Shown: positions 33,491 to 50,998, counted from the first letter of the stretch. The stretch: DNA of 64,000 nucleotides from Parcubacteria group bacterium Gr01-1014_8 (GCA_007376385.1 VMGC01000005.1:119386-183385), one strand, 5' to 3'. Program-made: numbers and translations. The notes: generated from the letters alone by a model not told the origin.

Positions 33491-35593
33491 TTAAGGAAGC
33501 TCTGGCATCGGGATTTCTGTTCCCGGACACATAAGCATATTTATCATACGCTGTGTTGTCTTATAGACGTAGCCGGTCGGCATGTTTTGCTTGAGGCCGA
33601 ACGGTATCCATGGAGCAAGAATTTCATCCGCATACTTTAATTGGAATGCTTTGACAGCACCCCTGGTAGCCGCGTCAAATTCTCCGTTCACTTCAAGAGC
33701 AAGCCCCATTTCCTTGTTTAGGAATTCCTGAAGAATCTTAACGTCATCAGCTGTTTCTTTTCCTTTACCAATGTAAGACGTGAGGAGAATGGCCGAGCAC
33801 GATGCGCTCGCGACTTCGCCTGCCACCTCTTCAACAACCGCTTCGCCGATGTCAGACGTAGCAGGTTCTGCCGGCGTTTCAGGTGCGGACGGAGGACACG
33901 GAACGCCCCAGCAGAATATGACCCCCTCATAAGGAGACGGATCTGTCGTGCCACCGTTGTCCGGTGTAGAAGTGCCCTGCGGCGTTTCTACAGTTTCTGC
34001 GCACGGAAGTTCCGTCTGTATTCCGTCTTCTGGGCAGAGATCGGTCTCTTCTTCCGATACTTCACTGCAATCCTCTTCGCTCAACTGAATGCCATCAGTA
34101 TCAGGGCAGACATCATCGCTTGAGCAGGGACCGATCAACTGGAAGTCAGGATCTTCAGGGCATGCATCCGGAAGGGGAATTTCTATGCACACCGGAGGAA
34201 TGCCGATATATCCGGGCGGGCACGACTCGGGAGTTACTTCGTCGCAATCGTTGGTTTCAGAATTGTATACCTGACCTTCCGAGCATGTCGGAATTTCCTC
34301 GCAGGTGCTTCCGTTCCAGGATCCGGCGGGATCGAGTGCGAGGCACTCTTCTTCTGTATCAACAGGGTTTGGCGGGAACGGAGTGTCATCACATACATCA
34401 CCAATACCGTCGCCATCGCTGTCGAGTTGGTCTGCATTTGCGTCAACAGGACAATTGTCTTCCTCGTTTACGACTTCGTCGCCGTCTACATCATCGTCGC
34501 AGACATCTCCTATGCCGTCGCCGTCGCTATCAGCCTGATCGGCGTTCGCGGTAACAGGACAGTTATCCTCTTCATCAGTAATGCCGTCGCCATCCGCGTC
34601 AGTATCCGGTGCGGGAATTTCCACTTCAAATGAGAATACTGCGTCGCCGGACGATTCAGCGCCCGGAGGATTCTGGTGGTACAGCTTCACCGTCACCGTG
34701 TATGTGTCCGGTGTCGAGTAGGCGTGAGAGTTGGTCCAAGGGCCGGAGAATGTTTTGTTGCCGCTCGTCGAACCGTCCGGATCGACAAAATTGAGCGTCG
34801 AGAAATCGTCAACATTTCCGTCGCCCCAATTTACCTGCACATCGTGCTGGCTGAACTGGCCTACGTAGGGGTCGGCCGAACCGGTACCCGTAAGAGTCAA
34901 CATGAGGAGCTCAATGTCTACAGGCTGGTCGACGGTGACTTGGTAGCCTCCTGTGTCCCCGACAACGTCACCCGTTATGGCAACGCCGTCGATGCGGAAA
35001 TTCTCTGCGCTATGGTTTGCACTGTTTCGGAAGCGGATAAGGAAATCGCTATCAGATGATGCGGGCACAGCGACACTTTGCTGTGAGCTCCAGCTCGCAG
35101 AGTTTGCGTCCGTATCATCGAGCTCGTGGGTCGCGAGCGTGTTCCAATCGGTGTCGCCGTCGCCACACTCATTTTCGTTGCCACTTTCGCTGTATTCTAC
35201 AACGCCTTTTTCGCCGTCTTCGGCATCGATATCGCCTCTCCAGTAATAGTTGATGTTGAAGTTTGTGAAGCCGTTAACTCCAGCGTCGCCATCTATTTCG
35301 CGGCAAATCCACTCGCCGTTTGCTATCTTTGCAAAACGTGCGCCGTTTGGGCTCGCCACGTCTTCACCTGAAACCTGCGCGGCGCGTGCGAGCGTTGTGG
35401 AATCGTTATCGTTTCCTTCCTCATCCCAGTTGGAAATGTTGCTAGAATCTGTCACCCCAGTACCGAATGACTCCACGGAAAGAACCGTAGCGGCCATGAC
35501 GCCCGTGGGGTAGAAGACCCCTGTGGTGACGAGAATAGTAATAAAGCTCAATACCTTGACCGAAATTGACCCTCTGATGTCGTGCTTAAACAT
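33491..35593 (-). CDS. large secreted protein with thrombospondin type 3 (Ca-binding) repeats and a C-terminal peptidoglycan-binding domain
   Basis: A signal peptide. TSP3 repeats (DTDADGDGITDEEDNCPVTANADQADSDGDGIGDVCDD repeated twice). A Cys-rich acidic region. A C-terminal PG_binding_1-like segment (DVKILQEFLNKEMGL...ATRGAVKAFQ). Confidence 0.75.
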   Translation of the reverse strand: MFKHDIRGSISVKVLSFITILVTTGVFYPTGVMAATVLSVESFGTGVTDSSNISNWDEEGNDNDSTTLARAAQVSGEDVASPNGARFAKIANGEWICREIDGDAGVNGFTNFNINYYWRGDIDAEDGEKGVVEYSESGNENECGDGDTDWNTLATHELDDTDANSASWSSQQSVAVPASSDSDFLIRFRNSANHSAENFRIDGVAITGDVVGDTGGYQVTVDQPVDIELLMLTLTGTGSADPYVGQFSQHDVQVNWGDGNVDDFSTLNFVDPDGSTSGNKTFSGPWTNSHAYSTPDTYTVTVKLYHQNPPGAESSGDAVFSFEVEIPAPDTDADGDGITDEEDNCPVTANADQADSDGDGIGDVCDDDVDGDEVVNEEDNCPVDANADQLDSDGDGIGDVCDDTPFPPNPVDTEEECLALDPAGSWNGSTCEEIPTCSEGQVYNSETNDCDEVTPESCPPGYIGIPPVCIEIPLPDACPEDPDFQLIGPCSSDDVCPDTDGIQLSEEDCSEVSEEETDLCPEDGIQTELPCAETVETPQGTSTPDNGGTTDPSPYEGVIFCWGVPCPPSAPETPAEPATSDIGEAVVEEVAGEVASASCSAILLTSYIGKGKETADDVKILQEFLNKEMGLALEVNGEFDAATRGAVKAFQLKYADEILAPWIPFGLKQNMPTGYVYKTTQRMINMLMCPGTEIPMPELP

Positions 35594-38592: not shown

Positions 38593-38868
38593 ATGAAGCA
38601 CATTGGGGCACATTTAAAGACGCGCAAGCATATTCTTCGCGAGACGGAGCGGGGGGAATTGATGAAATTCTTTTGCGAGCGCCTGAATTCGACGCGCCGG
38701 TTTGACGGTCTGCCTCGTATAACGATGGCCCGCATGGGGAAAATACTTGAAGGCATTCCGACAAAGGACCTCTATTATCTAAAGCGGGTTTGTAATGATG
38801 CTGGCAATTTCTCCAAAAAATTCTGGTGGGAGGTAAATCCAAAAAAGCATCCTGACGCTAAGATCTGA
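38593..38868 (+). CDS. hypothetical protein
   Basis: 91-aa ORF. Confidence 0.35.
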   Translation: MKHIGAHLKTRKHILRETERGELMKFFCERLNSTRRFDGLPRITMARMGKILEGIPTKDLYYLKRVCNDAGNFSKKFWWEVNPKKHPDAKI

Positions 38869-38879
38869 CCTCGATGCCT

Positions 38880-38919
38880 AAATACCTTAGTAGTGCCGGT
38901 CGGCACTACTAAGGTATTT
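38880..38919. repeat. palindromic hairpin repeat copy 3 (AAATACCTTAGTAGTGCCGGTCGGCACTACTAAGGTATTT)
   Basis: Perfect 18-bp stem with the same CCGGTCGG core. Confidence 0.6.
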
Positions 38920-39152: not shown

Positions 39153-40169
39153 ATGGCCTTTTCTTTCAGTCCAAAGCTCGGCATTGACCTCGGCACGACG
39201 ACCGTTCTCGTCTTTGTGCCGGGTAAGGGCATCGTATTGAACGAGCCGTCGGTCGTGGCTGTCTCCCAAGAAGAAAACCGCATTCTCGCGGTAGGAAACG
39301 ACGCGAAGGAAATGATAGGCCGAACCCCCGAATCTATCGTCGCGTATCGTCCTATGAAGGACGGCGTGATCGCCAACTACCGCGTAACCGAAGCAATGCT
39401 TCGCTATTTCATACGGAAGGCCCTCGGACGGTGGAATTTGTTCCGTCCCGAAGTAATGGTCAGCGTGCCAGCCGGGGTTTCTTCAACAGAGAGGCGCGCC
39501 GTCGTCGAGGCGGCGACAAAGGCGGGAGCGCGCCACGCATATGTGGTCAAAGAACCTATTCTTGCCGCGATAGGCGCTGGTATTCCTATCCACGAAGCGC
39601 GCGGACACATGATAGTGGACATCGGCGGAGGCACGACCGACGTTGCGGTTATCTCGCTCGGCGGTATCGTTGCGTCCACATCGGTAAAATGTGCGGGCAA
39701 TCGTATTGACCATGCGATAGCGGACTACGTGAAAAAAACATTCAATCTTTCAATTGGCGACAAAATGGCGGAGGAAATAAAAATTCACATCGGCTCTGCC
39801 GTTCCCGTTGATGAGGAATTGACGATGACGGTTAAAGGGCGGGACCATCTTACGGGACTTCCGCGTTCGATAGAACTCGGAACGAACGAAGTCGTACGTG
39901 CGGTGAGCCGTGAGCTTCGCATGATGGTTGGAGCAATTCGCGATGTGTTGCAGGAGACACCGCCAGAGCTCGCATCTGACATCATAGATAACGGCATTAC
40001 GATGACGGGAGGCTCTTCACAGCTTCGTAATCTGACGGAACTTGTATTTCGGCGCACAGGAGTGAAAGCGCGCGTAGCAAAAGATGCCCCATACTGCGTT
40101 GCAAAAGGCACTGGCGAAGCACTCAAACACTTGGACGTCTACAAAAAAGCGATTATCAGTAAACGATAA
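39153..40169 (+). CDS. mreB: rod shape-determining protein MreB (paralog 1, solitary)
   Basis: GIDLGTTTVLVFV, MIVDIGGGTTDVAVISLGG and the actin-fold phosphate loops. 338 aa. Confidence 0.9.
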   Translation: MAFSFSPKLGIDLGTTTVLVFVPGKGIVLNEPSVVAVSQEENRILAVGNDAKEMIGRTPESIVAYRPMKDGVIANYRVTEAMLRYFIRKALGRWNLFRPEVMVSVPAGVSSTERRAVVEAATKAGARHAYVVKEPILAAIGAGIPIHEARGHMIVDIGGGTTDVAVISLGGIVASTSVKCAGNRIDHAIADYVKKTFNLSIGDKMAEEIKIHIGSAVPVDEELTMTVKGRDHLTGLPRSIELGTNEVVRAVSRELRMMVGAIRDVLQETPPELASDIIDNGITMTGGSSQLRNLTELVFRRTGVKARVAKDAPYCVAKGTGEALKHLDVYKKAIISKR

Positions 40170-40300
40170 CGTTGTTGGAGTTTGATGTGGCTCGCCCAGT
40201 TAGAGGCGAAGCTCTCTGATGGGGACAAGAAAGCCATCATTAGCAAACGATAGGGTATCCTACAGGTAGCATCGTGCCCTTTTAGCGAGGGCTATTTGCG

Positions 40301-41686
40301 GTGTTGCCGATGGTCATAGATACAAAACCTTTGGAGGGAAGCCAGGAAGCGCAACTTCAGGCCGCGAAGGCCGTCTTCGACGTACTCGTCGCCAAATTCG
40401 AGCAGCCCGATCCGGAGGATCCGAATGCGGATCATTCGTTGCGCGACTTAGCCGTGCTGAATCCTTCCGACGAGAAGGAAAAATCTCCCGTCGAGAAGCG
40501 CCTATCGACAGAGTATGGTTACATGCCAGCAGAGATACAGTATGTCATTCGTAAGTTGTCCGAGATACGTGCGTTCGTCGATAATAATAAGAACTTCAGA
40601 ACAAAACAAAATCCTAATCCGGATGAGCGTGCGAAATTCTTGAAGGAATCTCTCTTTTTTACTGCGCACGCGGGATATTTGGATTCCGTCATCGCGCGGA
40701 AAAAGTATATTGATTTTCATGCCGAGCTAAGCAAGGACGTTAAGCTGCCGACAACGGAAGCTGAACGATTGCGGAAGGAGATATTCGAACATCTCGACAT
40801 GCTGAAGAGCGACCCGAAATTTCCGGAGGTGAGAATAATAGGTATCCGCGACAATGTAGAAGGTTATATGAAGTCGCTTGAGACGAAGGTGCTGGCTCCG
40901 GGTGTCAAAGACACGCATTCGTATCTTCGCGCGATACTGGGAATTACGACGCAGGCAGTGAATAGCCAGTTCAGCGTCGTAACCACGCCAGAACACGACA
41001 TCGCGACGAGAGCAGATGAAATAAAACATGAGGCTGCGCGTGGTCTTCTGGGAAGAGATACGAAAACAATACAGGCCGATATGGATGCGCAGATGGCAAA
41101 AGATGCCGTCATCGAAAAACTTCCGCTCGGCGTTCGAGTAGAAGGCGTCATGCCCGCAGACCCTGACATATCGTTCGTCATGGTACCTTCGCCATCGAGA
41201 CCAGCTGACTATGCGGTGTCATTTCCGGCAATCCCTCGCATTCGCGTGGCGAATGAACATCGATTGGCCAAGACGCCAGAAGGGCCGATAGAATTTCACA
41301 CGCACGTCACCAAACAAAATACTGTTGAAGAGATACGCGATGCTGCGTACGCGATCATGGAAAAAGAAGTCGGGCTCGTGAAGTTGTCCGCACAACCCGA
41401 GAAAATCGACCAAGGTGGCGATGATGCTTTTGCACGATTAGAGCAGCAGCTTGCGAATGCCTCGATGGTGCAAGTTCCGGACGTAGTGGGGGGAGAAACG
41501 TCTAGTGCCGCGCGTGCGGATGAGAATGCTCTCGATATTGATGAGCTGGAAACAAGATTGGCAAAGCAACTCGAGGAAGCAGTCGGCACATCAGCACCCA
41601 TTGATCGCGGTGACGGAGCCTTGCGGGTAGAAGATGTGGATACTGAAGAACTTATTCGGCGTTTGGACGCTATTATGCAACCATGA
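40301..41686 (+). CDS. hypothetical protein (gene A of the uncharacterised 10-gene block)
   Basis: 461 aa. No motif recognised. 4-nt overlap with the next gene. Confidence 0.45.
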   Translation: MLPMVIDTKPLEGSQEAQLQAAKAVFDVLVAKFEQPDPEDPNADHSLRDLAVLNPSDEKEKSPVEKRLSTEYGYMPAEIQYVIRKLSEIRAFVDNNKNFRTKQNPNPDERAKFLKESLFFTAHAGYLDSVIARKKYIDFHAELSKDVKLPTTEAERLRKEIFEHLDMLKSDPKFPEVRIIGIRDNVEGYMKSLETKVLAPGVKDTHSYLRAILGITTQAVNSQFSVVTTPEHDIATRADEIKHEAARGLLGRDTKTIQADMDAQMAKDAVIEKLPLGVRVEGVMPADPDISFVMVPSPSRPADYAVSFPAIPRIRVANEHRLAKTPEGPIEFHTHVTKQNTVEEIRDAAYAIMEKEVGLVKLSAQPEKIDQGGDDAFARLEQQLANASMVQVPDVVGGETSSAARADENALDIDELETRLAKQLEEAVGTSAPIDRGDGALRVEDVDTEELIRRLDAIMQP

Positions 41687-43785
41687 CCGACATTGGGGGT
41701 ATCAAGCCACCTTTGAAAGAACCAGAAACGCTCGATGATGTGATAGAGCTTGGTAAACCTCTGCGGACTGCGCTTACAGAGATTCTTCGGCGTGAACATG
41801 AGAATCGTTCGCTACCGGATGACGTAAAACGAAAAGCGGAAATAACCGAGGAAATTCGCAAATTAGCCGCGCATAAGGCACGGATCGTTTCCGCGATACC
41901 CACGGAAGAGCCCGCAGACGCAGAAACGGTCGAAACTGATCCACGGCCAGCTGAATCTGCCGGAGCAGCATTTGACCAACAAAAATTTAGAGATGCGGGA
42001 GAAGCATTCAAGCTCGTCGCCAGCGGACTGCATTTTTTTGTTGAACGAAATCTTGGGATGCCGGGTGTGCCCGTTGATGAGTCTCTCGCATCTGCGCTCG
42101 CAAATCCCAGAGGTGAGATTCTTGCAAAAATGAATGCTTTGGGATTGGGCAAGTCTGAGAGTAAACAAGATATGGACACAGTGGGGTTTGCTGCGGTCGC
42201 ATTTGGGCAAGCCCTCGCTATTTTTGGCGGGGACGATGCGCACATATCTGCGGAGCAAATGAAAAGTTTGGAATTAATGAAATTGCCGGAGCGGCTGCAA
42301 CGGCTTGCGAGCGCAATGGGAGTGATTCTCAATAAATATCCGCCTGTTGAGACCCCTGCACCCCAGCGTCCGGAAGCTGTGCCTCCTGTGGCGGCTCCTA
42401 ATATTCAGGATACAGCCGCTGCAGAAGCGTTGGAAGCTCTGAAAGCAGGTCTCGGACCCGCCGCGTCCGCCGCGGATACCCCGTCAAAGAATGGAGATGC
42501 AGCCGGGGGAGGCAGGGGAAGAAGAAAACGTCGAGGAAAAGGCGGAAACGCTCCGCCTGTTGGACCAGAAGCTCGTCCTCCAACAGATGCTCCAGAAAGA
42601 ATCGTTGAACCCGCGCCTGCGGCGAAGCCCAGGAAAGCGGAGCGAAAAGATGGGATAGTTGATGTCGGTCTGAAAAGAGCGGGAGCAGCAATTGCCGGTG
42701 GCTATAGAGGTGTTCAATCATGGCGCGAAACACGGCGGCAAGAAAATGAAGACAAATTATTGCAATCAGACGTTGACGCCAACACCCGTGCCAAATTCAA
42801 TGAACTCCAGAATCTTACAGATAAACACGGTAAGCTCACGTGGTCCGAGGCGGAAATGCGTAATCTGATGCTTGCTGTCGCGAAGATGGGTGAGTTGAAG
42901 CCAGAGGATTGGTGGAAATATCGGCCGTCGCTCTCGGGAGACGAAGCGCGCGCCTTACGCAGAGCACAACTACACTTCAGGAGAATCGACGTGAAGGCAG
43001 CTCGAAAGTTACGAAGTGAAGCTGATACGAAACGGAGAGCAGCAGAAGCTGCAGAATCGAAACGGCTGGAAGATATCGCGGCTCAAAAAAGAAACGTCGA
43101 CCGAATGAACCGGCGGGCTGAGAAAGGGAAGGGAAAATTGTCCCCCGAGGAGGTCGTAGCACTTGGGCAGGCGTGGAAAAGTAGAAAGAAACTTGCCGAT
43201 GGAAGCACATTCACTGAAACAGATGCGCTGAAGTATATGGCCTTGTTCGGAGGTCTATTGGGAAAAGCGGCCGACACGATCATACTCACGGCTGAGAAAC
43301 AAAAAATAATTGACCGTGCTGCTGAAGTGCTATTTCCATTGTGGGAAAAGGAGCGGATTGAAAGACGAGATAAAAGACGCGCTGCGGTCGCCGACGTCGC
43401 TCGCCGAAGCATGGCAGCAACCCGCAGTGGTTTAAGAGGTGCGGTGACCGGAGCGAATACACGGGTTCGAGAACGATGGACCAAGCGACAGGAACGTCAA
43501 CGCGCGGAAGCCGCTAAAAAAACGGCACCGGCTGTAGAAACACCGCTCGCAGTATCTCCTGAAACGGGCAAAGCAGATCTGACGCCTGTCGAGCGCAATG
43601 TTCTTGAAGGGCTGGTCATCGGTGGCAATGTTAAAAGGGCTGACGCGGACGTATTTCTCGCAGTATGGGGTCGCCCCGGCAATAAGGGTGCACCGCAAAG
43701 TGATGTCGAGCGTGCAGCTTTTGATACGGTCAATAAAGCACTTGAGCCTCATCGCAGATACGTGCAGTCGACTCTTACGGCCTAG
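41683..43785 (+). CDS. hypothetical protein, highly charged with a disordered Gly/Arg/Lys/Pro-rich region (gene B)
   Basis: 700 aa. The low-complexity segment GGGRGRRKRRGKGGNAPPVGPEARPP and Lys/Arg/Glu-rich helical stretches. Confidence 0.45.
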   Translation: MTDIGGIKPPLKEPETLDDVIELGKPLRTALTEILRREHENRSLPDDVKRKAEITEEIRKLAAHKARIVSAIPTEEPADAETVETDPRPAESAGAAFDQQKFRDAGEAFKLVASGLHFFVERNLGMPGVPVDESLASALANPRGEILAKMNALGLGKSESKQDMDTVGFAAVAFGQALAIFGGDDAHISAEQMKSLELMKLPERLQRLASAMGVILNKYPPVETPAPQRPEAVPPVAAPNIQDTAAAEALEALKAGLGPAASAADTPSKNGDAAGGGRGRRKRRGKGGNAPPVGPEARPPTDAPERIVEPAPAAKPRKAERKDGIVDVGLKRAGAAIAGGYRGVQSWRETRRQENEDKLLQSDVDANTRAKFNELQNLTDKHGKLTWSEAEMRNLMLAVAKMGELKPEDWWKYRPSLSGDEARALRRAQLHFRRIDVKAARKLRSEADTKRRAAEAAESKRLEDIAAQKRNVDRMNRRAEKGKGKLSPEEVVALGQAWKSRKKLADGSTFTETDALKYMALFGGLLGKAADTIILTAEKQKIIDRAAEVLFPLWEKERIERRDKRRAAVADVARRSMAATRSGLRGAVTGANTRVRERWTKRQERQRAEAAKKTAPAVETPLAVSPETGKADLTPVERNVLEGLVIGGNVKRADADVFLAVWGRPGNKGAPQSDVERAAFDTVNKALEPHRRYVQSTLTA

Positions 43786-43849
43786 ACATATCCACTGCCA
43801 CCTCGACCTCTGCCACCTGAGGTTTGTTTAGTTGTTATTATGAGAGTTC

Positions 43850-45091
43850 ATGACGGACCTGTCCGATGCGCAACGACGGAATGAGCCTATCGTGGAGCTG
43901 GCAAATGCTCCGACCAAAGACATCCGTAATGAAGCGATTTTGATGGCAGTCCAGCGGTCAGGGCATCCACCGGCGAGTTTCGTTGAGATACGCGGCCATA
44001 TTACAAATGCGGCCGAAATGAAGCGTGTGGAACAAACCACTCGCCTTACATCAGGAACAAGTATTCGGCTTGGCGCTATCGTAAACGACGCTACGACTAT
44101 CATTAAGAATGCCCAAAATACGGTGAGAGGAAGACTGCTTCGTGCGTGGGCAAGAGAGATTGCAGAGAGAGCGGGGCCCATCGTAATGTCAAATCGGTTG
44201 AACGATGACATCACAAATGAAGTGTACGCGGCGCTTACAAGCGCTAATCCGCTGCAGACATTGCAAGCTTTTCGCACCAACCCGAATAGCAATGGACTGC
44301 GAAGAGTGTTGGACCCTCGTTGGCAAGCAATAGTAAAGGGCGTCCAACAGTATGAGCCGCGGACCGCGAAAAATTCTATAACGGATAACGGCGAAATTCT
44401 GCAGATCATCCAAAGTTGGCGCACGGCCGGCATACCGATCGGCGGGGTTCACGCGGACCCGTTGCTCGCAACCCTTCCCCGTGATGAGGATAGAGTGCGC
44501 GCAAAAGCGCTGATAAAAGGGAATCAATATCTTGCCAATCTGAAGCCAGAGGATCTCGGCAAGTTATCCGACTCACAGAGGAGTCTTTTGGCTGAATACA
44601 AAGGCTCTTCGACAAGGCGAAAGGGGCAGCTTCGCGGACAATTTGCCGGAATTGCCGCCATCGAAGCAACGGCTGAAGGACGACCTTACGGAAGAGCGGA
44701 AAAAGCACGGGCGAGAGGGGCGGAAGCAGAAAGTGCTGAATTCCTTGCATTGCTTCACTCTGGATATTCCGATGCATCTCCGCCGATACCTGGACTAACG
44801 CAGCCCGAATATGATTGGTATTTGCAGAACAGAGGTGCGCGCGTTCGTGGTCTCTCTGCACGCGCTCCAGCCGGTACGACTGGTCGTTCTATAATGGCGA
44901 AAGTTCAGGCGATCCGTACCGAGCAGGTCAGACGGTCAACACCCCACGCATCGCCTGAATCACCAGCGCGCAGAACAGCTCCCGTAGAGCAACGGGTACC
45001 TGAAGCATCTGCTGCCGGTGCGGACAACTTAAGTAAGCAGGTTGATGCTGAGATCGCAGAGATGCTTAGAAAGTATGGTGGCGCGCAGTAA
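43850..45091 (+). CDS. hypothetical protein (gene C)
   Basis: 413-aa ORF. Confidence 0.45.
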   Translation: MTDLSDAQRRNEPIVELANAPTKDIRNEAILMAVQRSGHPPASFVEIRGHITNAAEMKRVEQTTRLTSGTSIRLGAIVNDATTIIKNAQNTVRGRLLRAWAREIAERAGPIVMSNRLNDDITNEVYAALTSANPLQTLQAFRTNPNSNGLRRVLDPRWQAIVKGVQQYEPRTAKNSITDNGEILQIIQSWRTAGIPIGGVHADPLLATLPRDEDRVRAKALIKGNQYLANLKPEDLGKLSDSQRSLLAEYKGSSTRRKGQLRGQFAGIAAIEATAEGRPYGRAEKARARGAEAESAEFLALLHSGYSDASPPIPGLTQPEYDWYLQNRGARVRGLSARAPAGTTGRSIMAKVQAIRTEQVRRSTPHASPESPARRTAPVEQRVPEASAAGADNLSKQVDAEIAEMLRKYGGAQ

Positions 45092-45111
45092 CCCAGTAGA
45101 AAATATTTGAT

Positions 45112-45912
45112 ATGATTGACCGTAATGCTTTACCAAATGGGATACGAAAACTTGCTATGAGCCTGGATAGACTAGGACCAGCCGGAGGTACACCAGAAGG
45201 GCCGGAGCGAGCGAATCATGAGCTCGAGAAATTCATGCAGCATCTGGCGCTGAAAGAGGGCATCAACGTCAATGACATGCGGCATTACCGCAATAAAGGT
45301 ATGCGGCGCGGCTTTGCCCACGTTCGCGAGACAGGATGGGATGTGGCAAAGTATTTTGTCGGCGGTATAGCGGCTCAACTTATACATAAGCTCGCTGGTA
45401 ATGTAATTGGGGGAATGAACAGTGCCGGTGCAAAAATACCAAAGTTCGTACAAACCGCTTCATTTTTTATACCAGCAATTGCGCTAAGGCGTTACTCCGG
45501 TTTGGTCAATGAGAATCGAGCTGTGCTCGATGCGGCACGAGTGGTGGATAGGGTATGGAAGGACCCAGTTGCCCGTCAGCAGCTCATTGATGCCGTGAGA
45601 GATAATAATACGGGAGAGTTAGATCGTCTCCAAAAAGATAAGGACCACGGTCCAGTGTTTAAAACGATCCGAAAATGGTTGCCACGAACTCTTGCTGGGC
45701 TCTCGGGTATCGGAGTAGCAGCTTCAGGTTATGAAGGACTTGCTTCATTTATCACTACGCTTTACTTGCGACCAGATCTGATGCCTGCCGCGCTCGCCAA
45801 TCTTCCCGTGAAGGGTGTTTCAGAGGTTGGGAAAATGGGTGTGGAGATAGGCGGTCATTTGAAAGATGGAGCCATGGGAATCTGGGGATTCATTTCAAAA
45901 TTTATTAGATAA
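45112..45912 (+). CDS. hypothetical protein with hydrophobic segments (gene D)
   Basis: 266 aa. Two hydrophobic stretches (FFIPAIALRRY…, LAGLSGIGVAASGYEGLASFITTLYL). Confidence 0.45.
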   Translation: MIDRNALPNGIRKLAMSLDRLGPAGGTPEGPERANHELEKFMQHLALKEGINVNDMRHYRNKGMRRGFAHVRETGWDVAKYFVGGIAAQLIHKLAGNVIGGMNSAGAKIPKFVQTASFFIPAIALRRYSGLVNENRAVLDAARVVDRVWKDPVARQQLIDAVRDNNTGELDRLQKDKDHGPVFKTIRKWLPRTLAGLSGIGVAASGYEGLASFITTLYLRPDLMPAALANLPVKGVSEVGKMGVEIGGHLKDGAMGIWGFISKFIR

Positions 45913-45993
45913 CATCTGACTATTATTCAAGAGTGCAATAAAATCGGTGCTATGATGAGGGGCAATGCATCGCACGCGGTGTTTTCATAAAAA

Positions 45994-46377
45994 GTGCATA
46001 TGACAAACAATAAACAGACTTGGGATGAATTTCGGACGATGATTGCGACTGAACTTGGTATTCAGAGCCTTCCGGCGGAAAAACAGGTAGAAATCATTGA
46101 AGAAATTGGTGAGGCTCTGATGGACAGAGTAATTCTTGCCGTGTGGAAAAAAGTCCCGCCGCAAGAACTAGCAAAGATGGCAGAAAAAGCCAAGCGTGAG
46201 GATGATGAAACTGGTTCCGACCCGCGTCGCGCGCTGGAATTCTTACAGCAATATGAACAGTACATTCCAAATTTTGCACAGTTTCTGGATAGCGAAATAC
46301 GCGCAGGGCTTCAAGCGTATCGAGCATTCATGCTCGGTGCGGGCGCCACTCAAACTTCTTCGAAAAAAGCGGCCTAA
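45994..46377 (+). CDS. small helical protein, paralog E1 (divergent member of the E family)
   Basis: 127 aa. Shares the pattern (LG/IGE-L--RV-L-----P-E......Y-P......EIRAG) with E2 and E3. Confidence 0.45.
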   Translation: MHMTNNKQTWDEFRTMIATELGIQSLPAEKQVEIIEEIGEALMDRVILAVWKKVPPQELAKMAEKAKREDDETGSDPRRALEFLQQYEQYIPNFAQFLDSEIRAGLQAYRAFMLGAGATQTSSKKAA

Positions 46378-46392
46378 TGTGGGTCACGTCGT

Positions 46393-48081
46393 ATGATTCG
46401 ACTGTGGCCTCGAGGTGCAGAAAGTGCGACGGCAGCTCCGGAGATGAGTGCGCCTCTTCGCGAACTGAGTAATGTTCTGCAGAGGGGTCGCGGCGGGTCG
46501 CTCGCTGATGCGGCAAGAAATATTGAGAACCGAGCGAGGAATATTTCCAACGTGCAAGGCCCCGAAGCGGAGCAGCTATTGCGAGATAATAATTTGCTTC
46601 GATTGAGAGCTCTTCAGCAAGAGAATCGACTCAATCCGGGGCGTGCGGCGCACATTCAACAGGAAATAAGAGAGATAAATCAAGAAATGGCTGGGTTGAC
46701 GGGAATCGCAGCGACGCCCGCGGGCTCACCCGCGATTGATAATGTCGCCGCAGGACATTCAGACCCGACCGTGCAAGCGCTTGGCGCTCAAATGTCTCGT
46801 ATCGAAGCGATGCTTCGCGGAATGCCGGGCGGCGCAGTCGGAGGAACCGGGATGCACCCCATGTGGATGGCGCATCCGATGTGGTCTGTAGGGGGATACG
46901 GTGGCGCTCCTGGCGGCGGGAGGCCGTATCAACTAGGCGATATCGGGCCTGATGGCACGCCTATTGTTGCGGCTGGAAATGCGCTAAACGAGCAAAGAAT
47001 TCGAGAGATATTTGCAGAAGAGCTGGCGAAACATAAGGCTGCGACCGATGCGCAATTGCAGGCGCAGAATGGAGATCCGAATATCAAACACATCAGTGAA
47101 GGGCTTCAGAAGATCGGAAAGGGTCGATGGTTCCGCGCTGCGTTAGTTGCGGCGGGCATAGCGGGAACAACCGCGATACTTACCGGTTCAGGCGGTTTTG
47201 CAGCACCTGTTGTGCCGTATCTCATGAACGCGTTGCTTGCGTGGGGTGCCTCCAGTACCGTTGCCACTGTAGGAACAGGCGCTGCGGTGGGCGCAGGTGT
47301 GTTCACGCCGCTTTGGGCAATGCGCGGAGTTGGACGCACGATCAAGGCTGATCGAGCTCTGCGAAGAGAATATGGTAACAACATATATGTCTCGGGGAAA
47401 CTGCGTCAGATGTTATTTAAGGAACCGTTTAAGGGCGCACTTCTTGGCGGAGTCATTGGTGCGTTGCTTGGGTATCCGTATCCCGGGGGCAAGACGGGCG
47501 CGGAGTACGTTAAGGGGGGCGCACTAAACGTATGGAAAGATCCTTGGACCCTCTGGACTACGCCAAAGGGCTGGCTCTCGTGGTTATGGTCAAACATTCC
47601 GTGGCCAACCTCTTCTCCCGACTGTCTGCGCTGTTCACCTGGGATACACTTTTCAGCTCTTACTGAGCAACTTAATTTTATTTCTCCCGCCGTCGCTGCA
47701 GAAGCCGCGACAGCAGCCGCGCCAGCTTCTTCATGGCCGGTTTCTCTTGGTTCAGTCGGATTGGGAGCTGCAGGAGGCATGGCTCTCAATAGATTAACTA
47801 CGCCGAAAGCTGCCGCGCTCGATGCCGGAGCAGAAGCAGTGAAATTTACGCCAGAGGCTGTCTGGAAAGATGCGAAGCTAACGCCTGCACAAAAAAATAC
47901 GTTGACAGGATTCGCGAATACGATCATGCCCGGCGAAACGGACATGCGAAAGATAGTAGAAAAAGTCAGCAATCGCGACTTGGGTTCGGATCTGCTGCTC
48001 GCTATCTCAAGGTCCGGATGGTCTCCGCCCGAAATGGAACAAGCGATGATACCCCTGAGGAAACTGCGCAATCCACTTTGA
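46393..48081 (+). CDS. hypothetical membrane-associated protein F1 (coiled-coil N-terminus, Met/Trp-rich segment, Gly-rich hydrophobic helices)
   Basis: 562 aa. GMHPMWMAHPMWSVGGYGG. TM-like RAALVAAGIAGTTAILTGSGGFAAPVVPYLMNALLAWGASSTVATVGTGAAVGAGVF. Confidence 0.45.
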   Translation: MIRLWPRGAESATAAPEMSAPLRELSNVLQRGRGGSLADAARNIENRARNISNVQGPEAEQLLRDNNLLRLRALQQENRLNPGRAAHIQQEIREINQEMAGLTGIAATPAGSPAIDNVAAGHSDPTVQALGAQMSRIEAMLRGMPGGAVGGTGMHPMWMAHPMWSVGGYGGAPGGGRPYQLGDIGPDGTPIVAAGNALNEQRIREIFAEELAKHKAATDAQLQAQNGDPNIKHISEGLQKIGKGRWFRAALVAAGIAGTTAILTGSGGFAAPVVPYLMNALLAWGASSTVATVGTGAAVGAGVFTPLWAMRGVGRTIKADRALRREYGNNIYVSGKLRQMLFKEPFKGALLGGVIGALLGYPYPGGKTGAEYVKGGALNVWKDPWTLWTTPKGWLSWLWSNIPWPTSSPDCLRCSPGIHFSALTEQLNFISPAVAAEAATAAAPASSWPVSLGSVGLGAAGGMALNRLTTPKAAALDAGAEAVKFTPEAVWKDAKLTPAQKNTLTGFANTIMPGETDMRKIVEKVSNRDLGSDLLLAISRSGWSPPEMEQAMIPLRKLRNPL

Positions 48082-48121
48082 TATGCAGGGAAATCAATAT
48101 TAACAGTTATACTTAACACAT

Positions 48122-48469
48122 ATGGACCCACAGCAATTAATGGCACAGGGGAGAGAGATGCTCGTGAAGGAGCTGAACCTTGCGCATTTGACGGAAGAGG
48201 AACAGGACCAGATACTCGACGGGCTCGGGGAGGTGTTGCTCCGCCGCGTACTTTTGAAGATGTTGGAACTAATGCCAGAGAGCGAGCGGGAGAATTTTGG
48301 TAAATTATTTGCCGCGCAAGACGCTGAAGGTATGCAAGCGGTCGTCGTAAAGTACATTCCGAACGCGAACGACGTCATCAAGGCAGAACTTCGCGCGGGA
48401 ATCGACGAACATAAGCGATTGGTTGGAGAAGCCGTCGCGAGAGATGCAGCAAGCGCACCGACTCCATAA
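48122..48469 (+). CDS. small helical protein, paralog E2
   Basis: 115 aa. About 65 percent identity by eye to E3 (PQQLM-QGR-ML--ELNL-HL…ILD-LGEVLL-RVLLK…NFGKLFA-QDA-GMQAVV-KY-P…AELRAGIDEHKRLV). Confidence 0.5.
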   Translation: MDPQQLMAQGREMLVKELNLAHLTEEEQDQILDGLGEVLLRRVLLKMLELMPESERENFGKLFAAQDAEGMQAVVVKYIPNANDVIKAELRAGIDEHKRLVGEAVARDAASAPTP

Positions 48470-48474
48470 GAAAC

Positions 48475-49317
48475 ATGAACGGGCTTGATTCGCCCACAGG
48501 CGATAGGAACTCACACCCCGATCCCGTGATTAGACAACTGATTGAGCAGGCAAATAGGATTGAGGCGCTGGTGCAAGAGCGGATGTCGGGAATGGGGGGC
48601 ATGAGTGCGATGTGGCAGTCTCCCGTAGCATTCCAGAGGGTTAATCAATTCGCGCCAGCAAGTGCGGCTTCACTGCGTGGACAATTGAATACACCGACGA
48701 GGCCGGAAAGCGCCCTCGCAGACATAGCGACCCTGAAACGCGTCGTTGGCGAACAACAGGCGTGGATAGATGCACAGCCGGTGAGAAAACACATTAAAGA
48801 AGGTTTAGAATTGTTGAAGAAAGAGCCAACCACGTGGGGGCGCATCTTGCAAAATACGCTTCTCGTCGCGAGCGGCATCACGTATACGGCGCTCGCTTCC
48901 AAACATCTAACGTCAGGGTTTTCGTTGGCGATGCTTACCGGCCTCGGCATCCCCGCGGCGATTGCGGCCTCTGCTATCGTTGCAGTACTTCCTGCACTTG
49001 CCATCACCGGTCTGAGGGCCAGACGAGCAATACGCGAGGCATCCGACCTTTTGAAACAAAAATATGGACAAGGAGGTAAAGACGTTATCGTCGAAGGAAA
49101 AGGCTGGCGGTTCCTTCGAATGACCGGACGTTCCGCCACAATAGATGTCGTCGTCGCGGCGCTCCTCGTTGGAGGTTTAATGGAAATGAAAATGCCATGG
49201 CTAGGGCCAGATACATCTCCGGCAGATGTGGTGAGGCAAACCGCAGAAACGGTTTGGAAAGGCGCAGGCAATGCAATAAGTACCTTGTGGGGGCTCATCA
49301 TGCGCCGAACGCCATAG
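48475..49317 (+). CDS. hypothetical membrane protein F2
   Basis: 280 aa. A GMGGMSAMWQSP motif resembling F1. 3-4 TM helices. Confidence 0.45.
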   Translation: MNGLDSPTGDRNSHPDPVIRQLIEQANRIEALVQERMSGMGGMSAMWQSPVAFQRVNQFAPASAASLRGQLNTPTRPESALADIATLKRVVGEQQAWIDAQPVRKHIKEGLELLKKEPTTWGRILQNTLLVASGITYTALASKHLTSGFSLAMLTGLGIPAAIAASAIVAVLPALAITGLRARRAIREASDLLKQKYGQGGKDVIVEGKGWRFLRMTGRSATIDVVVAALLVGGLMEMKMPWLGPDTSPADVVRQTAETVWKGAGNAISTLWGLIMRRTP

Positions 49318-49332
49318 AACGGTCATACGTTA

Positions 49333-49692
49333 ATGTATACTCTTTCTATGAACCCTCAACAGTTAATGACACAAGGGCGAGCGATGCTCATTGAAGAGTT
49401 GAACCTGATGCATCTGCCGGAACTTGAGCAAAATGAGATACTCGACCAGCTTGGGGAAGTATTGCTTCAAAGAGTGCTTCTCAAGTTGCTAGACATGCTG
49501 CCGGAGAATGAGCGAGACAATTTTGGAAAACTTTTCGCTTCGCAGGATGCGCAGGGTATGCAGGCGGTTGTCTCAAAATACGTGCCACATGTAGACGAAG
49601 TGATTAGAGCAGAACTTCGCGCAGGAATCGACGAACACAAACGGCTCGTCAATGAAGCCGCAGCAAAGGAAGAAACTGCGCAGGCCGCATAA
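49333..49692 (+). CDS. small helical protein, paralog E3
   Basis: 119 aa. See E2. Confidence 0.5.
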   Translation: MYTLSMNPQQLMTQGRAMLIEELNLMHLPELEQNEILDQLGEVLLQRVLLKLLDMLPENERDNFGKLFASQDAQGMQAVVSKYVPHVDEVIRAELRAGIDEHKRLVNEAAAKEETAQAA

Positions 49693-49698
49693 CGCAGC

Positions 49699-50325
49699 AT
49701 GGACACGCTGCGCGCATCGGGAGCCGAGAAACAAAAAGCCATGGAAGTTGCCGCGCGAGCGGCGTTCGGAGAGCTCGAAGAAAAATTGGCGCAGCTCGGG
49801 AAAGTTTCCGAGGAGGATTTGTGGTCTTACGGTGTCCCCACTGGAGACAGTCGTGATGCGATTCGCAGGCTAGTTGCGATACGAGAAGTTGTTGCGAGAC
49901 ACAAACCGTTAGCCGAGAAACCAGAGCTTTTAGGCAGTGAAGCTGAAAAGTTTGTTCAGTGGTCTTCTACTTTTTCAAACGCTGTCAGTTATCTCAACTA
50001 TTTGCTCGGGAAGCGAGACGATACTGATACATTTCAAGAAAAGCGTAAGGAAGAAAGCGCCAAGTGGACATCGGTAGTGGCAGCGCATCGAGATATCACA
50101 ACTCTATTGAACTCTCTCGCGGAGCAGAAGCTGCAGAAATATTCGGCGGAGACGATACTGGGCCTTTCTCGCAATGCGGAGACGCTTGTCGAAGAAGCGA
50201 GAAACTCCAGCGAACAAAGGGACGGTGCTCTTAAGTCTTTGCAGGATATGTTGGGTGGACTTCGAAAAGACGCGCTTACCGCGCAATACGAACGGGAGCA
50301 CGCAGACGATTTCCCACACATGTAA
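49699..50325 (+). CDS. hypothetical helical protein (gene G, last of the block)
   Basis: 208-aa ORF. Confidence 0.45.
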   Translation: MDTLRASGAEKQKAMEVAARAAFGELEEKLAQLGKVSEEDLWSYGVPTGDSRDAIRRLVAIREVVARHKPLAEKPELLGSEAEKFVQWSSTFSNAVSYLNYLLGKRDDTDTFQEKRKEESAKWTSVVAAHRDITTLLNSLAEQKLQKYSAETILGLSRNAETLVEEARNSSEQRDGALKSLQDMLGGLRKDALTAQYEREHADDFPHM

Positions 50326-50332
50326 GAAATCG

Positions 50333-50881
50333 TTAGAACATCGGCTTTACGTCCTTCGGTTTTTCAGTTCTTTTGAGCTGCTCGACTTCCTCAATTAGTT
50401 TTTGAAGTGTTGATTCGATGCTCACAAGCGTTTCTTTCTGCTGTTCTTTGCGCCTCTCTTCTTCCGCGGCTTCTGCATTTTCTTCTTCGGTCATCTCCTC
50501 GACATCTTCTCCTATTCCCTCAACGTCTTCGCCTATCTCTTCGATGTCTTCCTGCAATTCATCAACGTCTTCCGAGATCTCCTCAACGTCCTCTTGAATT
50601 TCGCCCACGTCTTCCTGGATTTCTTCCACATCCTCCCGCACTTCCGCGATGCTTGCCGCTTGATAGTTAATCGTCATTTGGATGAAAATCGCGAGATAAA
50701 TGGCTTCCAGCGAAACTATTGTCGTAAGCACAAGTAGCATGCGGTCGAGGTTGAGGATGTCGAACCATACCGCGAGGAAGCTTCCCGCAAACAGGATCGT
50801 ATGGATGATGATGGAGGCGGGGGAGCCCACAAAGCGCGTAACGGTCAATGCCGTTTTTTGAATGTCTTTAAATTCGGACAT
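50333..50881 (-). CDS. DUF1003 family membrane protein with a C-terminal acidic tandem repeat
   Basis: LTTIVSLEAIYLAIFIQMTINYQA is the DUF1003 motif. The repeat is (EDVEEIQ/EDVGEIQ/EDVEEIS…) over 7 units, encoded by 24-bp tandem DNA repeats at about 50470-50650. Confidence 0.6.
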   Translation of the reverse strand: MSEFKDIQKTALTVTRFVGSPASIIIHTILFAGSFLAVWFDILNLDRMLLVLTTIVSLEAIYLAIFIQMTINYQAASIAEVREDVEEIQEDVGEIQEDVEEISEDVDELQEDIEEIGEDVEGIGEDVEEMTEEENAEAAEEERRKEQQKETLVSIESTLQKLIEEVEQLKRTEKPKDVKPMF

Positions 50882-50962
50882 CGCGCCGAGTATACCTTAA
50901 GAGAAATTAACTGTCCTGTCGGTTACGCACAGTTTTTCGTCTCAATTGTTTAGTTCATTGTA

Positions 50963-50998
50963 ATACCTTAGTGGTGCCGGTCGGCACCACTAAGGTAT
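50963..50998. repeat. palindromic hairpin repeat copy 4 (ATACCTTAGTGGTGCCGGTCGGCACCACTAAGGTAT)
   Basis: Perfect 16-bp stem with the same core. Confidence 0.6.

Follow-up and report, generated by a model that had tools for sequence, protein, structure and literature searches.

A large part of the diversity of bacteria is accounted for by the Patescibacteria (candidate phyla radiation, CPR), which live attached to other cells and whose genomes commonly contain orphan gene clusters. Here we describe such a cluster from Parcubacteria group bacterium Gr01-1014_8 (GCA_007376385.1), a block of ten genes (g1-g10; positions 40301-50325, + strand) within a stretch of 64,000 nucleotides (VMGC01000005.1:119386-183385; hereafter the window, to which all coordinates refer). 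The block is located downstream of a stand-alone paralog of mreB (mreB2) and contains genes for small acidic proteins of the DUF5663 type (PF18908), each directly after a gene for a larger basic protein. Three described systems come closest to it, namely the RodZ and MreC/MreD partners of MreB, the chaperone/cargo pairs of type III and type VI secretion systems (T3SS and T6SS), and the magnetosome islands, which possess the actin-like MamK, the acidic repetitive MamJ and the Gly/Leu-rich MamG/D/Mms6.

With RodZ and MreC/MreD the block shares the location of genes for (putative) membrane proteins beside an mreB, and the layout of its g6-type proteins is similar to that of RodZ. However, g6-type proteins have several hydrophobic helices rather than one, MreC and MreD domains are absent from the block (genuine mreC and mreD being present elsewhere in the window), and no match to a RodZ-type helix-turn-helix (HTH) or DUF4115 domain was found in the ten proteins at E ≤ 1. 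The likeness to the T3SS and T6SS pairs consists in a small acidic helical protein beside its cognate hairpin protein, one per cargo, and in fast diversification, but the block lacks secretion machinery, similarity to TPR, CesT or DUF1795 proteins, and any fold match. As in magnetosome islands, a gene of the actin family has as its neighbours genes for orphan proteins that are acidic or repetitive and for small membrane proteins rich in Gly; MreB2 is nevertheless a canonical MreB and not a MamK, and the CDF transporters MamB/M, the proteases MamE/O and MamI/L/Q have no counterparts in the block. No similarity of the block to any described system was found, and it is new in that sense only.

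Organization of the block

The first-pass annotation of this DNA had called ten open reading frames (ORFs) with operon-like spacing, and an ORF scan reproduced their + strand coordinates and lengths exactly. The only overlap is that of g1 and g2 (4 nt), all other junctions being gaps of 5-81 nt. The independent gene call of the 189.8-kb metagenomic source contig (ENA ERZ27284378, k139_616945) agrees with the ten ORFs except for the start codons of g1, g5 and g9. As homologs of eight of the ten genes are present in related contigs, the block genes are real. The spacing is thus operon-like, as proposed, but the co-directionality that had also been put forward says little, because almost every gene between 39 and 60 kb is on the + strand. 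No Shine-Dalgarno sequence was found before any block gene or before mreB2, and promoter and terminator consensus scans gave chance-level matches only. The base composition of the block is unremarkable, and the window contains no extra copies of the block families elsewhere. The products fall into an acidic set (g1, g5, g7, g9 and g10; isoelectric points (pI) 4.7-5.4) and a basic set (g2, g3, g4, g6 and g8; pI 9.7-10.2).

DUF5663 for g7 and g9 is the only Pfam assignment in the block. The acidic proteins g7 (48122-48469, +; 115 aa) and g9 (49333-49692, +; 119 aa) score 28.9 and 26.5 bits, respectively, against PF18908 (gathering cut-off 23.7 bits). They are 71% identical, a 300-nt direct repeat (D1) spans both genes, and from the alignment to g7 the true start of g9 is likely to be ATG 49348. 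The product of the third small gene, g5 (45994-46377, +; 127 aa; alternative starts 46000 and 46039), is acidic and DUF5663-like; it has no Pfam match of its own, and phmmer retrieved g9 (E 3e-11), g7 (E 1.5e-9) and other DUF5663 members with it. DUF5663 proteins are all-helical, about 110-125 aa long, and come from Parcubacteria-type genomes. An AlphaFold2 model of g7 consists of five helices (predicted local distance difference test, pLDDT, 88), and a fold search with this model gave no match. No paper in the searched literature mentions DUF5663 or PF18908.

A tree of 13 DUF5663 proteins comprises three subtypes (alpha, beta and gamma). The gamma proteins (g7, g9 and six orthologs) are in 8/8 cases encoded directly after a gene of the g6/g8 family (see below). 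The alpha proteins, in which g5 groups with L003_128 and L018_122 (from the related contigs L003 and L018), follow proteins of ~300 aa, and the beta proteins follow proteins of 456-470 aa. What follows on the 3' side varies: in some cases the block ends there, in others a membrane protein, an unrelated protein or one of g10 type is encoded. Since the subtype tracks the upstream gene while the downstream genes vary, the conserved unit is a gene for a putative membrane protein followed by its DUF5663 gene. Charge alternates in the same register, the small proteins having pI 4.7-5.1 and their upstream partners pI 9.7-10.2, and likewise in L003 and L018. There are three alternating units in the window (if g4 is counted as a partner), four in L018 and three or four in L003; a single unit is visible in L007 and L009. 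The first-pass annotation had proposed three iterations of a module in which the small protein precedes its larger partner. Three small paralogs are indeed present (g5, g7 and g9), but only two Gly-rich partners with the Met/Trp motif (g6 and g8), and the tree and the synteny shift the module by one gene; the presumed third iteration, g9 followed by g10, is not such a module, g10 having no hydrophobic segment. As far as could be found, the pairing of DUF5663 with an upstream hydrophobic-hairpin protein has not been described previously.

The basic proteins g6 (46393-48081, +; 562 aa) and g8 (48475-49317, +; 280 aa), the latter a short paralog of the former, are 27% identical over 289 aa (E 8e-8). 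Both contain, in this order, a 'H(P/S)DP...RIE' helix, an aromatic/Gly/Met/Pro linker, a 'DPxxKHIxEGL...K...GRW' motif, 57-62 uncharged Gly/Ala-rich residues, a basic loop 'LRxxYGxxxxVxGK' and a GxxxG-type helix. In g6, a helical N-terminal part precedes the linker (here Gly/Met/Trp/Pro), the 'DPxxKHIxEGL...GRW' motif is juxtamembrane in position, the uncharged stretch has 62 residues, and the helix after the basic loop (GxxxGGxxGxxxG) is followed by a variable C-terminal part. Membrane status was gauged by Kyte-Doolittle (KD) means over 19-residue windows and by scans for uncharged stretches. A KD mean of 1.6 is passed by g8 (2.34 at residues 159-177 and 1.72 at 220-238) and by most g6/g8 orthologs, and g6 and its orthologs possess uncharged Gly/Ala-rich stretches of about 40-60 residues between basic loops; both features are in line with the earlier description of Gly-rich hydrophobic helices and with a partly membrane-embedded system. 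Orthologs of g6 are found in L007 (733 aa) and L003 (628 aa), and the ortholog of g8 in L018 (P0025) has 280 aa and 37% identity. Pfam searches with all members of the g6/g8 family were empty.

The shared Met/Trp-rich motif pointed out in the first-pass annotation is kept in g6, g8 and one ortholog, that of L003 (GMHPGWMIHPGW), but is not a feature of the family: in the other orthologs it is replaced by aromatic/Gly/Pro/Gln (Gln/Tyr/Pro/Gly-rich) low-complexity sequence. It amounts to a local variant of a low-complexity linker. A copper-binding role of the Met/His/Trp motif was considered and rejected, as the motif is not conserved in orthologs.

The protein encoded before g5, g4 (45112-45912, +; 266 aa, pI 10.1), is basic, Gly-rich and weakly hydrophobic, with no 19-residue window reaching a mean KD of 1.2. 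It occupies the slot of ~300-aa membrane proteins in L003 and L018 by position only; hhalign probabilities were 1.6% to the g6/g8 family and 0.7% to L003_324/L018_303. Neither g4 nor g3 has paralogs in the block.

The remaining proteins are soluble, and helical or disordered. The first of them, g1 (40301-41686, +), is acidic (pI 5.0) and has 461 aa if started from GTG or 458 aa from ATG 40310; an ortholog is present in L007 (461-469 aa, E 1e-17), and searches of Pfam, NCBIfam, PHROG and PADLOC gave zero matches. The basic protein g2 (41683-43785, +; 700 aa, pI 9.7) has a variable N-terminus, a disordered low-complexity centre rich in Pro, Ala, Gly, Arg and Lys, much as first described, and a conserved helical C-terminal half; its orthologs have 559 aa (L003, 31% identity) and 572 aa (L018). 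No family match was obtained for g3 (43850-45091, +; 413 aa, basic, pI 10.0), whose sole homolog found is that of L018 (464 aa), and the orthologs of g2 and g3 are confined to sister genomes. The block ends, as had been noted, with a helical protein of 208 aa, the acidic g10 (49699-50325, +), for which no PDB or Pfam matches were found; its orthologs in L003 (211 aa) and L009 (215 aa) are 49% and 41% identical. The g10 family aligns with g1 (hhalign probability 92.8%, residues 9-166 of g10 onto 12-192 of g1), so that a helical domain of ~160 residues is common to g10 and the N-terminal ~190 residues of g1. Further blastp hints of relatedness, between g10 and g2 (E 9e-4) and between g4 and g6 (E 0.005), were dropped because hhalign failed to link either pair.

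Distribution and divergence

None of the ten proteins contains a Walker A motif, HExxH, a CxxC pair, LPxTG or an N-terminal signal peptide; for the first two this agrees with the first-pass annotation. NCBIfam searches gave no matches for block proteins, PADLOC gave two at chance level only (E 0.011 and 0.018), and a PDB sequence search with profiles of DUF5663, g10 and g6/g8 gave none below E 0.09. No block gene was assigned by profile hits to an unrelated known family. The absence of phage hallmarks claimed earlier was confirmed as well: the best PHROGs match was no lower than E 0.008, g1 and g3 had no tblastn match in 50,697 phage records, a DUF5663 scan of IMG/VR found no loci, and neither hallmark proteins nor similarity to phage genomes were detected. 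A mobile element was rejected on the grounds that no integrase and no adjacent tRNA were found, the composition is unremarkable, and the block occupies the same site in all relatives.

An exhaustive HMMER search of 1.84 billion cluster representatives retrieved 7 proteins of the g6/g8 family at E ≤ 1e-3, two of which were the queries, and word-index searches with g6 and with a five-sequence core alignment gave only the query among the 8000 candidates considered, a set probably filled by low-complexity words. The close relatives of DUF5663 number 21. With a 22-sequence query, DUF5663 loci were found in 185,579 species genomes four times, and a scan of JGI metagenomes found them on three short contigs; an earlier scan of genome contigs with the three DUF5663 paralogs of the window alone had found nothing. 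The first-pass view of the block as lineage-specific, non-metabolic and non-phage is upheld.

Seven related contigs were compared, only some of which extend to each flank. Synteny, which the first-pass annotation had proposed as a check, is conserved: the block has the same position in all related contigs, and the order mreB2, block, DUF948-like gene (on the - strand), holB, frr is found in every one reaching that far. An frr-linked RseP-type M50 gene, with a PDZ domain, is located four genes downstream of the block. The family order is kept in the window, L003 and L018 (acidic protein, g2-type, g3-type, then alternating large basic and small acidic proteins), the block being sometimes closed by a g10-type protein. 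The divergence within this frame is uneven. Between the window and L003, protein identity is 97% for MreB2 (82% at the nucleotide level), 73% for frr, 71% for the DUF948-like protein and 61% for holB, compared with 75% for g7, 49% for g10, 32% for g6 and 31% for g2; a counterpart of g1, g3 or g4 in L003 is undetectable, and hhalign found no link of g1 and g3 to their positional equivalents there. The block is thus a rapidly evolving locus flanked by conserved genes. The long reading frames and the kept gene order favour function over decay.

DUF5663 genes are also clustered in a second, distant clade (L004, L005, L012, L013, L014 and L017; clusters at L004 1540-9550, L013 3073-10354, L014 1231-11241 and L005 43-7955). 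The order here is a short M50 peptidase, one to three large proteins, two DUF5663 genes, a 200-310-aa protein (with a Sec or Tat signal in L004 and L005) and rpsL-rpsG. The short M50 peptidase has the motifs HEVAHG ... NLVPIPPLDG and is separated by 1-9 nt from the gene of the first large hairpin protein in 3/3 contigs. In most of the large proteins (590-1208 aa), an uncharged Gly/Ala hairpin of 38-50 residues is accompanied by a second helix rich in Gly and by low-complexity tails of Arg, Gly and aromatic residues. The clusters' own proteins are 33-58% identical, whereas their flanks are 85-97% identical. No mreB is located near these clusters. As they pair DUF5663 with a hairpin protein in its absence, the association with hairpin proteins is wider than that with mreB.

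Possible function of the block

The reading that we prefer, tentatively and with somewhat less than even confidence, is that of an operon confined to one clade and inherited vertically, which encodes a multi-protein assembly embedded in the membrane and composed of cognate pairs of a basic membrane protein and an acidic DUF5663 protein and of soluble subunits. Starting from real genes in paralog families with conserved synteny, rapid divergence, narrow distribution and a fixed pairing register, we infer physical pairing, a membrane topology, surface exposure and the function of the assembly. The basic protein would insert into the membrane through its Gly/Ala-rich hydrophobic hairpins and GxxxG-type helices, and the five-helix acidic DUF5663 protein would act as a dedicated adaptor or chaperone of the partner encoded upstream of it, whose basic cytoplasmic part it would bind. 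The soluble g1, g2, g3 and g10 may complete the assembly. The C-terminal regions of the membrane proteins, which are variable and Pro-rich or collagen-like in the g6/g8 orthologs, are probably exposed at the surface, judging from their composition and from the fast divergence; such exposure would account for that divergence and for units being gained or lost.

Contact within the pairs is deduced from gene adjacency, from subtypes that co-vary with the partner, from copy numbers that match and from complementary charges. Several observations weigh against this reading. The best 19-residue KD mean of g6 is 1.43 and none in g4 is above 1.2, and the homology of g4 to g6/g8 is not demonstrable by hhalign. 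An AlphaFold2 model of g8 (7 sequences) has a pLDDT of 40 and is unusable, so that the topology is a positive-inside guess. Signal peptides, anchors to the cell wall and known extracellular domains, which would favour surface exposure, were not found in the block. Furthermore, although the recurrence of the same layout in the distant clusters, with other flanks, speaks for the reading, their hairpin proteins are not detectably homologous to the g6/g8 family (hhalign 1.8%), and the likeness could be convergence or coincidence, and the fast evolution of the block could simply reflect weak constraint.

As an operon of paired membrane and adaptor proteins that is conserved yet evolves fast, the block offers a concrete candidate for one of the lineage-specific envelope or host-contact structures of Patescibacteria that lack known genes (PMC11880426). 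With this block, DUF5663 also gains its first testable context, as the presumed cognate partner of an upstream hydrophobic-hairpin protein. The value of the block is limited by the occurrence of the family in a handful of uncultured genomes, by the lack of any indicated specific activity and by the unproven link to MreB.

That link is the basis of the best-surviving alternative, which we nevertheless regard as unlikely: the block proteins would tether MreB2 filaments to the membrane and envelope, in the manner of RodZ or MreC/MreD, and would set the location of a surface or cell-shape structure peculiar to this Parcubacteria family. The mreB2 gene (39153-40169, +; 338 aa) ends 131 nt before the block, exactly as first noted, and encodes a canonical MreB (PF06723, 437 bits, 323/327 profile positions) with Geobacillus MreB as best PDB relative (E 4e-107). 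It is 46% identical to the MreB of the mreB-mreC-mreD-PBP2 operon, which is indeed located elsewhere (55.7-59.6 kb; its mreB at 55.6-56.8 kb), and scores higher against Geobacillus MreB than the latter (361 versus 342-345 bits). Given 97% protein but 82% nucleotide identity between the window and L003, with frr at 73%, the stand-alone paralog is under very strong purifying selection. As the cell keeps a separate mreBCD-PBP2 operon, the second MreB would be free for another task. Moreover, mreB2 is directly upstream of the block in 4/4 contigs reaching it (window, L003, L018 and ERZ27297570), and the layout of g6-type proteins (cytoplasmic helical part, basic juxtamembrane segment, hydrophobic helices, linker and variable C-terminus) is RodZ-like in logic.

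However, the four contigs stem from close relatives that are syntenic across the entire neighbourhood, which deprives the adjacency of weight as independent evidence, and no mreB is found near the distant DUF5663 clusters. The 97% conservation of MreB2 is hard to square with a conserved interface to partners that are 30-50% identical or unrecognisable. In each of the three genomes compared at the DNA level (window, L003 and L018), a hairpin separates mreB2 from g1. RodZ-type HTH and DUF4115 domains are absent, and stand-alone mreB paralogs, e.g. mbl in Bacillus, are common. The envelope- or cytoskeleton-linked complex suggested in the first-pass annotation therefore holds in being lineage-specific, syntenic and, probably, partly membrane-embedded, but its cytoskeletal side is adjacency to mreB2, that is, synteny only, since the distant clusters have no mreB. 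A functional coupling of the block to mreB2 is possible.

Somewhat less likely again is the absence of any functional system, i.e., weakly constrained lineage-specific orphans and local duplicates (g7/g9, g6/g8, g1/g10) accumulating at a permissive site between housekeeping genes. Such a view would accommodate the narrow distribution (7 proteins in 1.84 billion representatives and 21 close DUF5663 homologs), the very fast divergence with variable gene content and the lack of a recognisable catalytic or binding motif. It is at odds with ORFs that are long and intact although synonymous sites are near saturation (cf. the nucleotide and protein identities of mreB2), with the family order kept in three genomes, with the co-variation of DUF5663 subtypes and upstream partners, and with a conservation of DUF5663 (75%) on par with that of frr.

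In a third, improbable scenario, DUF5663 proteins would be chaperones that keep the hairpins of their membrane-inserting partners soluble until delivery into the own or a host membrane, as do T3SS class II chaperones with translocators or T6SS Eag proteins with effectors; in a variant, the pair would be a pore-forming toxin and its protector. The presence of one small acidic helical protein per larger hairpin partner, their co-diversification, and a rapid evolution with copy-number change typical of interaction or effector loci are consistent with this, but neither the block nor its surroundings encode a secretion ATPase, a secretin, a needle or a VgrG-type component, searches gave no matches to TPR, CesT or Eag (DUF1795) families, and no toxin domain was found. 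By contrast with these missing components, the setting would suit such proteins, as cryo-electron tomography of Patescibacteria has revealed envelope and host-contact nanostructures without assigned genes (PMC11880426). There is a slim chance that the block and MreB2 together form an envelope apparatus of one Parcubacteria family, in which an actin-like filament would organise rows of membrane/DUF5663 proteins whose hypervariable outer parts contact the host; if true, this would give genes to a nanostructure seen by tomography.

Regulated intramembrane proteolysis, in which the Gly-rich helices would be site-2-protease (S2P) substrates whose cleavage frees a cytoplasmic domain or the DUF5663 protein in an anti-sigma/sigma-like fashion, is the least probable explanation: helix-destabilising Gly is typical of S2P substrates, a short M50 gene abuts that of the first large hairpin protein in the distant clade and an M50 gene lies downstream of the block, but the latter encodes an ordinary frr-linked RseP with a PDZ domain, the window has no ortholog of the short M50 peptidase, DUF5663 is acidic and has no sigma-factor or HTH similarity, and no anti-sigma domain match was found.

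Flanking genes and small elements

The block is flanked on its distal side by a convergent gene (50333-50881, -) for a membrane-anchored protein that is 71-76% identical in L003, L007 and L009; this gene is the constant convergent neighbour of the block in all seven related contigs. The first-pass annotation had named it a DUF1003 gene with an acidic tandem repeat. The repeat is real (about six copies of a 7-aa acidic unit of the EDVEEIQ type, with a 21-nt period), but the DUF1003 score (23.6 bits) is below the cut-off (27.4), as is that of DUF948 (32.7 bits, cut-off 37.2); precomputed matches on its orthologs list both families, mostly weakly. On the proximal side, a small ORF (38593-38868, +) upstream of mreB2 encodes a basic protein of 91 aa with no Pfam family. 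In ERZ27297570, a 92-aa gene overlaps the start of mreB by 4 nt. Position and size thus make it a possible conserved partner of mreB2.

The 3' end of mreB2, eight codons with the stop counted, (K)AIISKR*, recurs 64-173 nt further on, just ahead of the first block gene, in 3/3 genomes compared at the DNA level (window 40146-40169 and 40230-40253; L003 ~937-960 and 1001-1024; L018 ~135-158 and 308-331). Among the three second copies, 7/24 sites vary, and 7/7 of these fall on the third position of a codon (hypergeometric P about 2e-5), a pattern like that of a translated sequence. The two copies within a genome differ at 5-6 third positions, which makes recent gene conversion unlikely. Measured against mreB2, the second copy falls into frame 0, +1 and +2 in the three genomes. 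The open frame that closes with it has a start preceded by GGAG (GGAG-N4-ATG, 22 aa) in the window and only TTG/GTG starts in L018; in L003 it has none. The second copy might conceivably belong to a small ORF that imitates the MreB tail, or reflect translational bypassing of an inserted hairpin.

A perfect palindrome of 36-38 nt, AATACCTTAGT(A/G)GTGCCGGTCGGCAC(T/C)ACTAAGGTAT, occurs exactly twice in the 64 kb (0 expected), at 38881-38917, 10 nt beyond the small ORF that precedes mreB2, and at 50962-50998, in the divergent intergenic region between the DUF948-like gene and holB. Between the two copies lie mreB2, the block and the DUF948-like gene; the sole difference between the copies is a compensatory change of an A:T to a G:C pair. 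The hairpins are predicted to have -37 and -32 kcal/mol (z -8 and -9). Related loci lack the palindrome, and the intergenic regions that correspond there are far shorter. The palindrome may be an element of the repetitive extragenic palindromic (REP) type or an operator.

Long antisense ORFs of 218-246 aa (41673-42332, 47406-48146 and 48645-49301, all on the - strand) overlap g2, g6 and g8. They are absent from the gene call and most likely are by-products of Ala/Gly-rich codon usage on the sense strand. Upstream, the gene at 33491-35593 (-) encodes a 700-aa protein with thrombospondin type-3 repeats and a peptidoglycan-binding domain, a probable cell-surface protein unrelated to the block.

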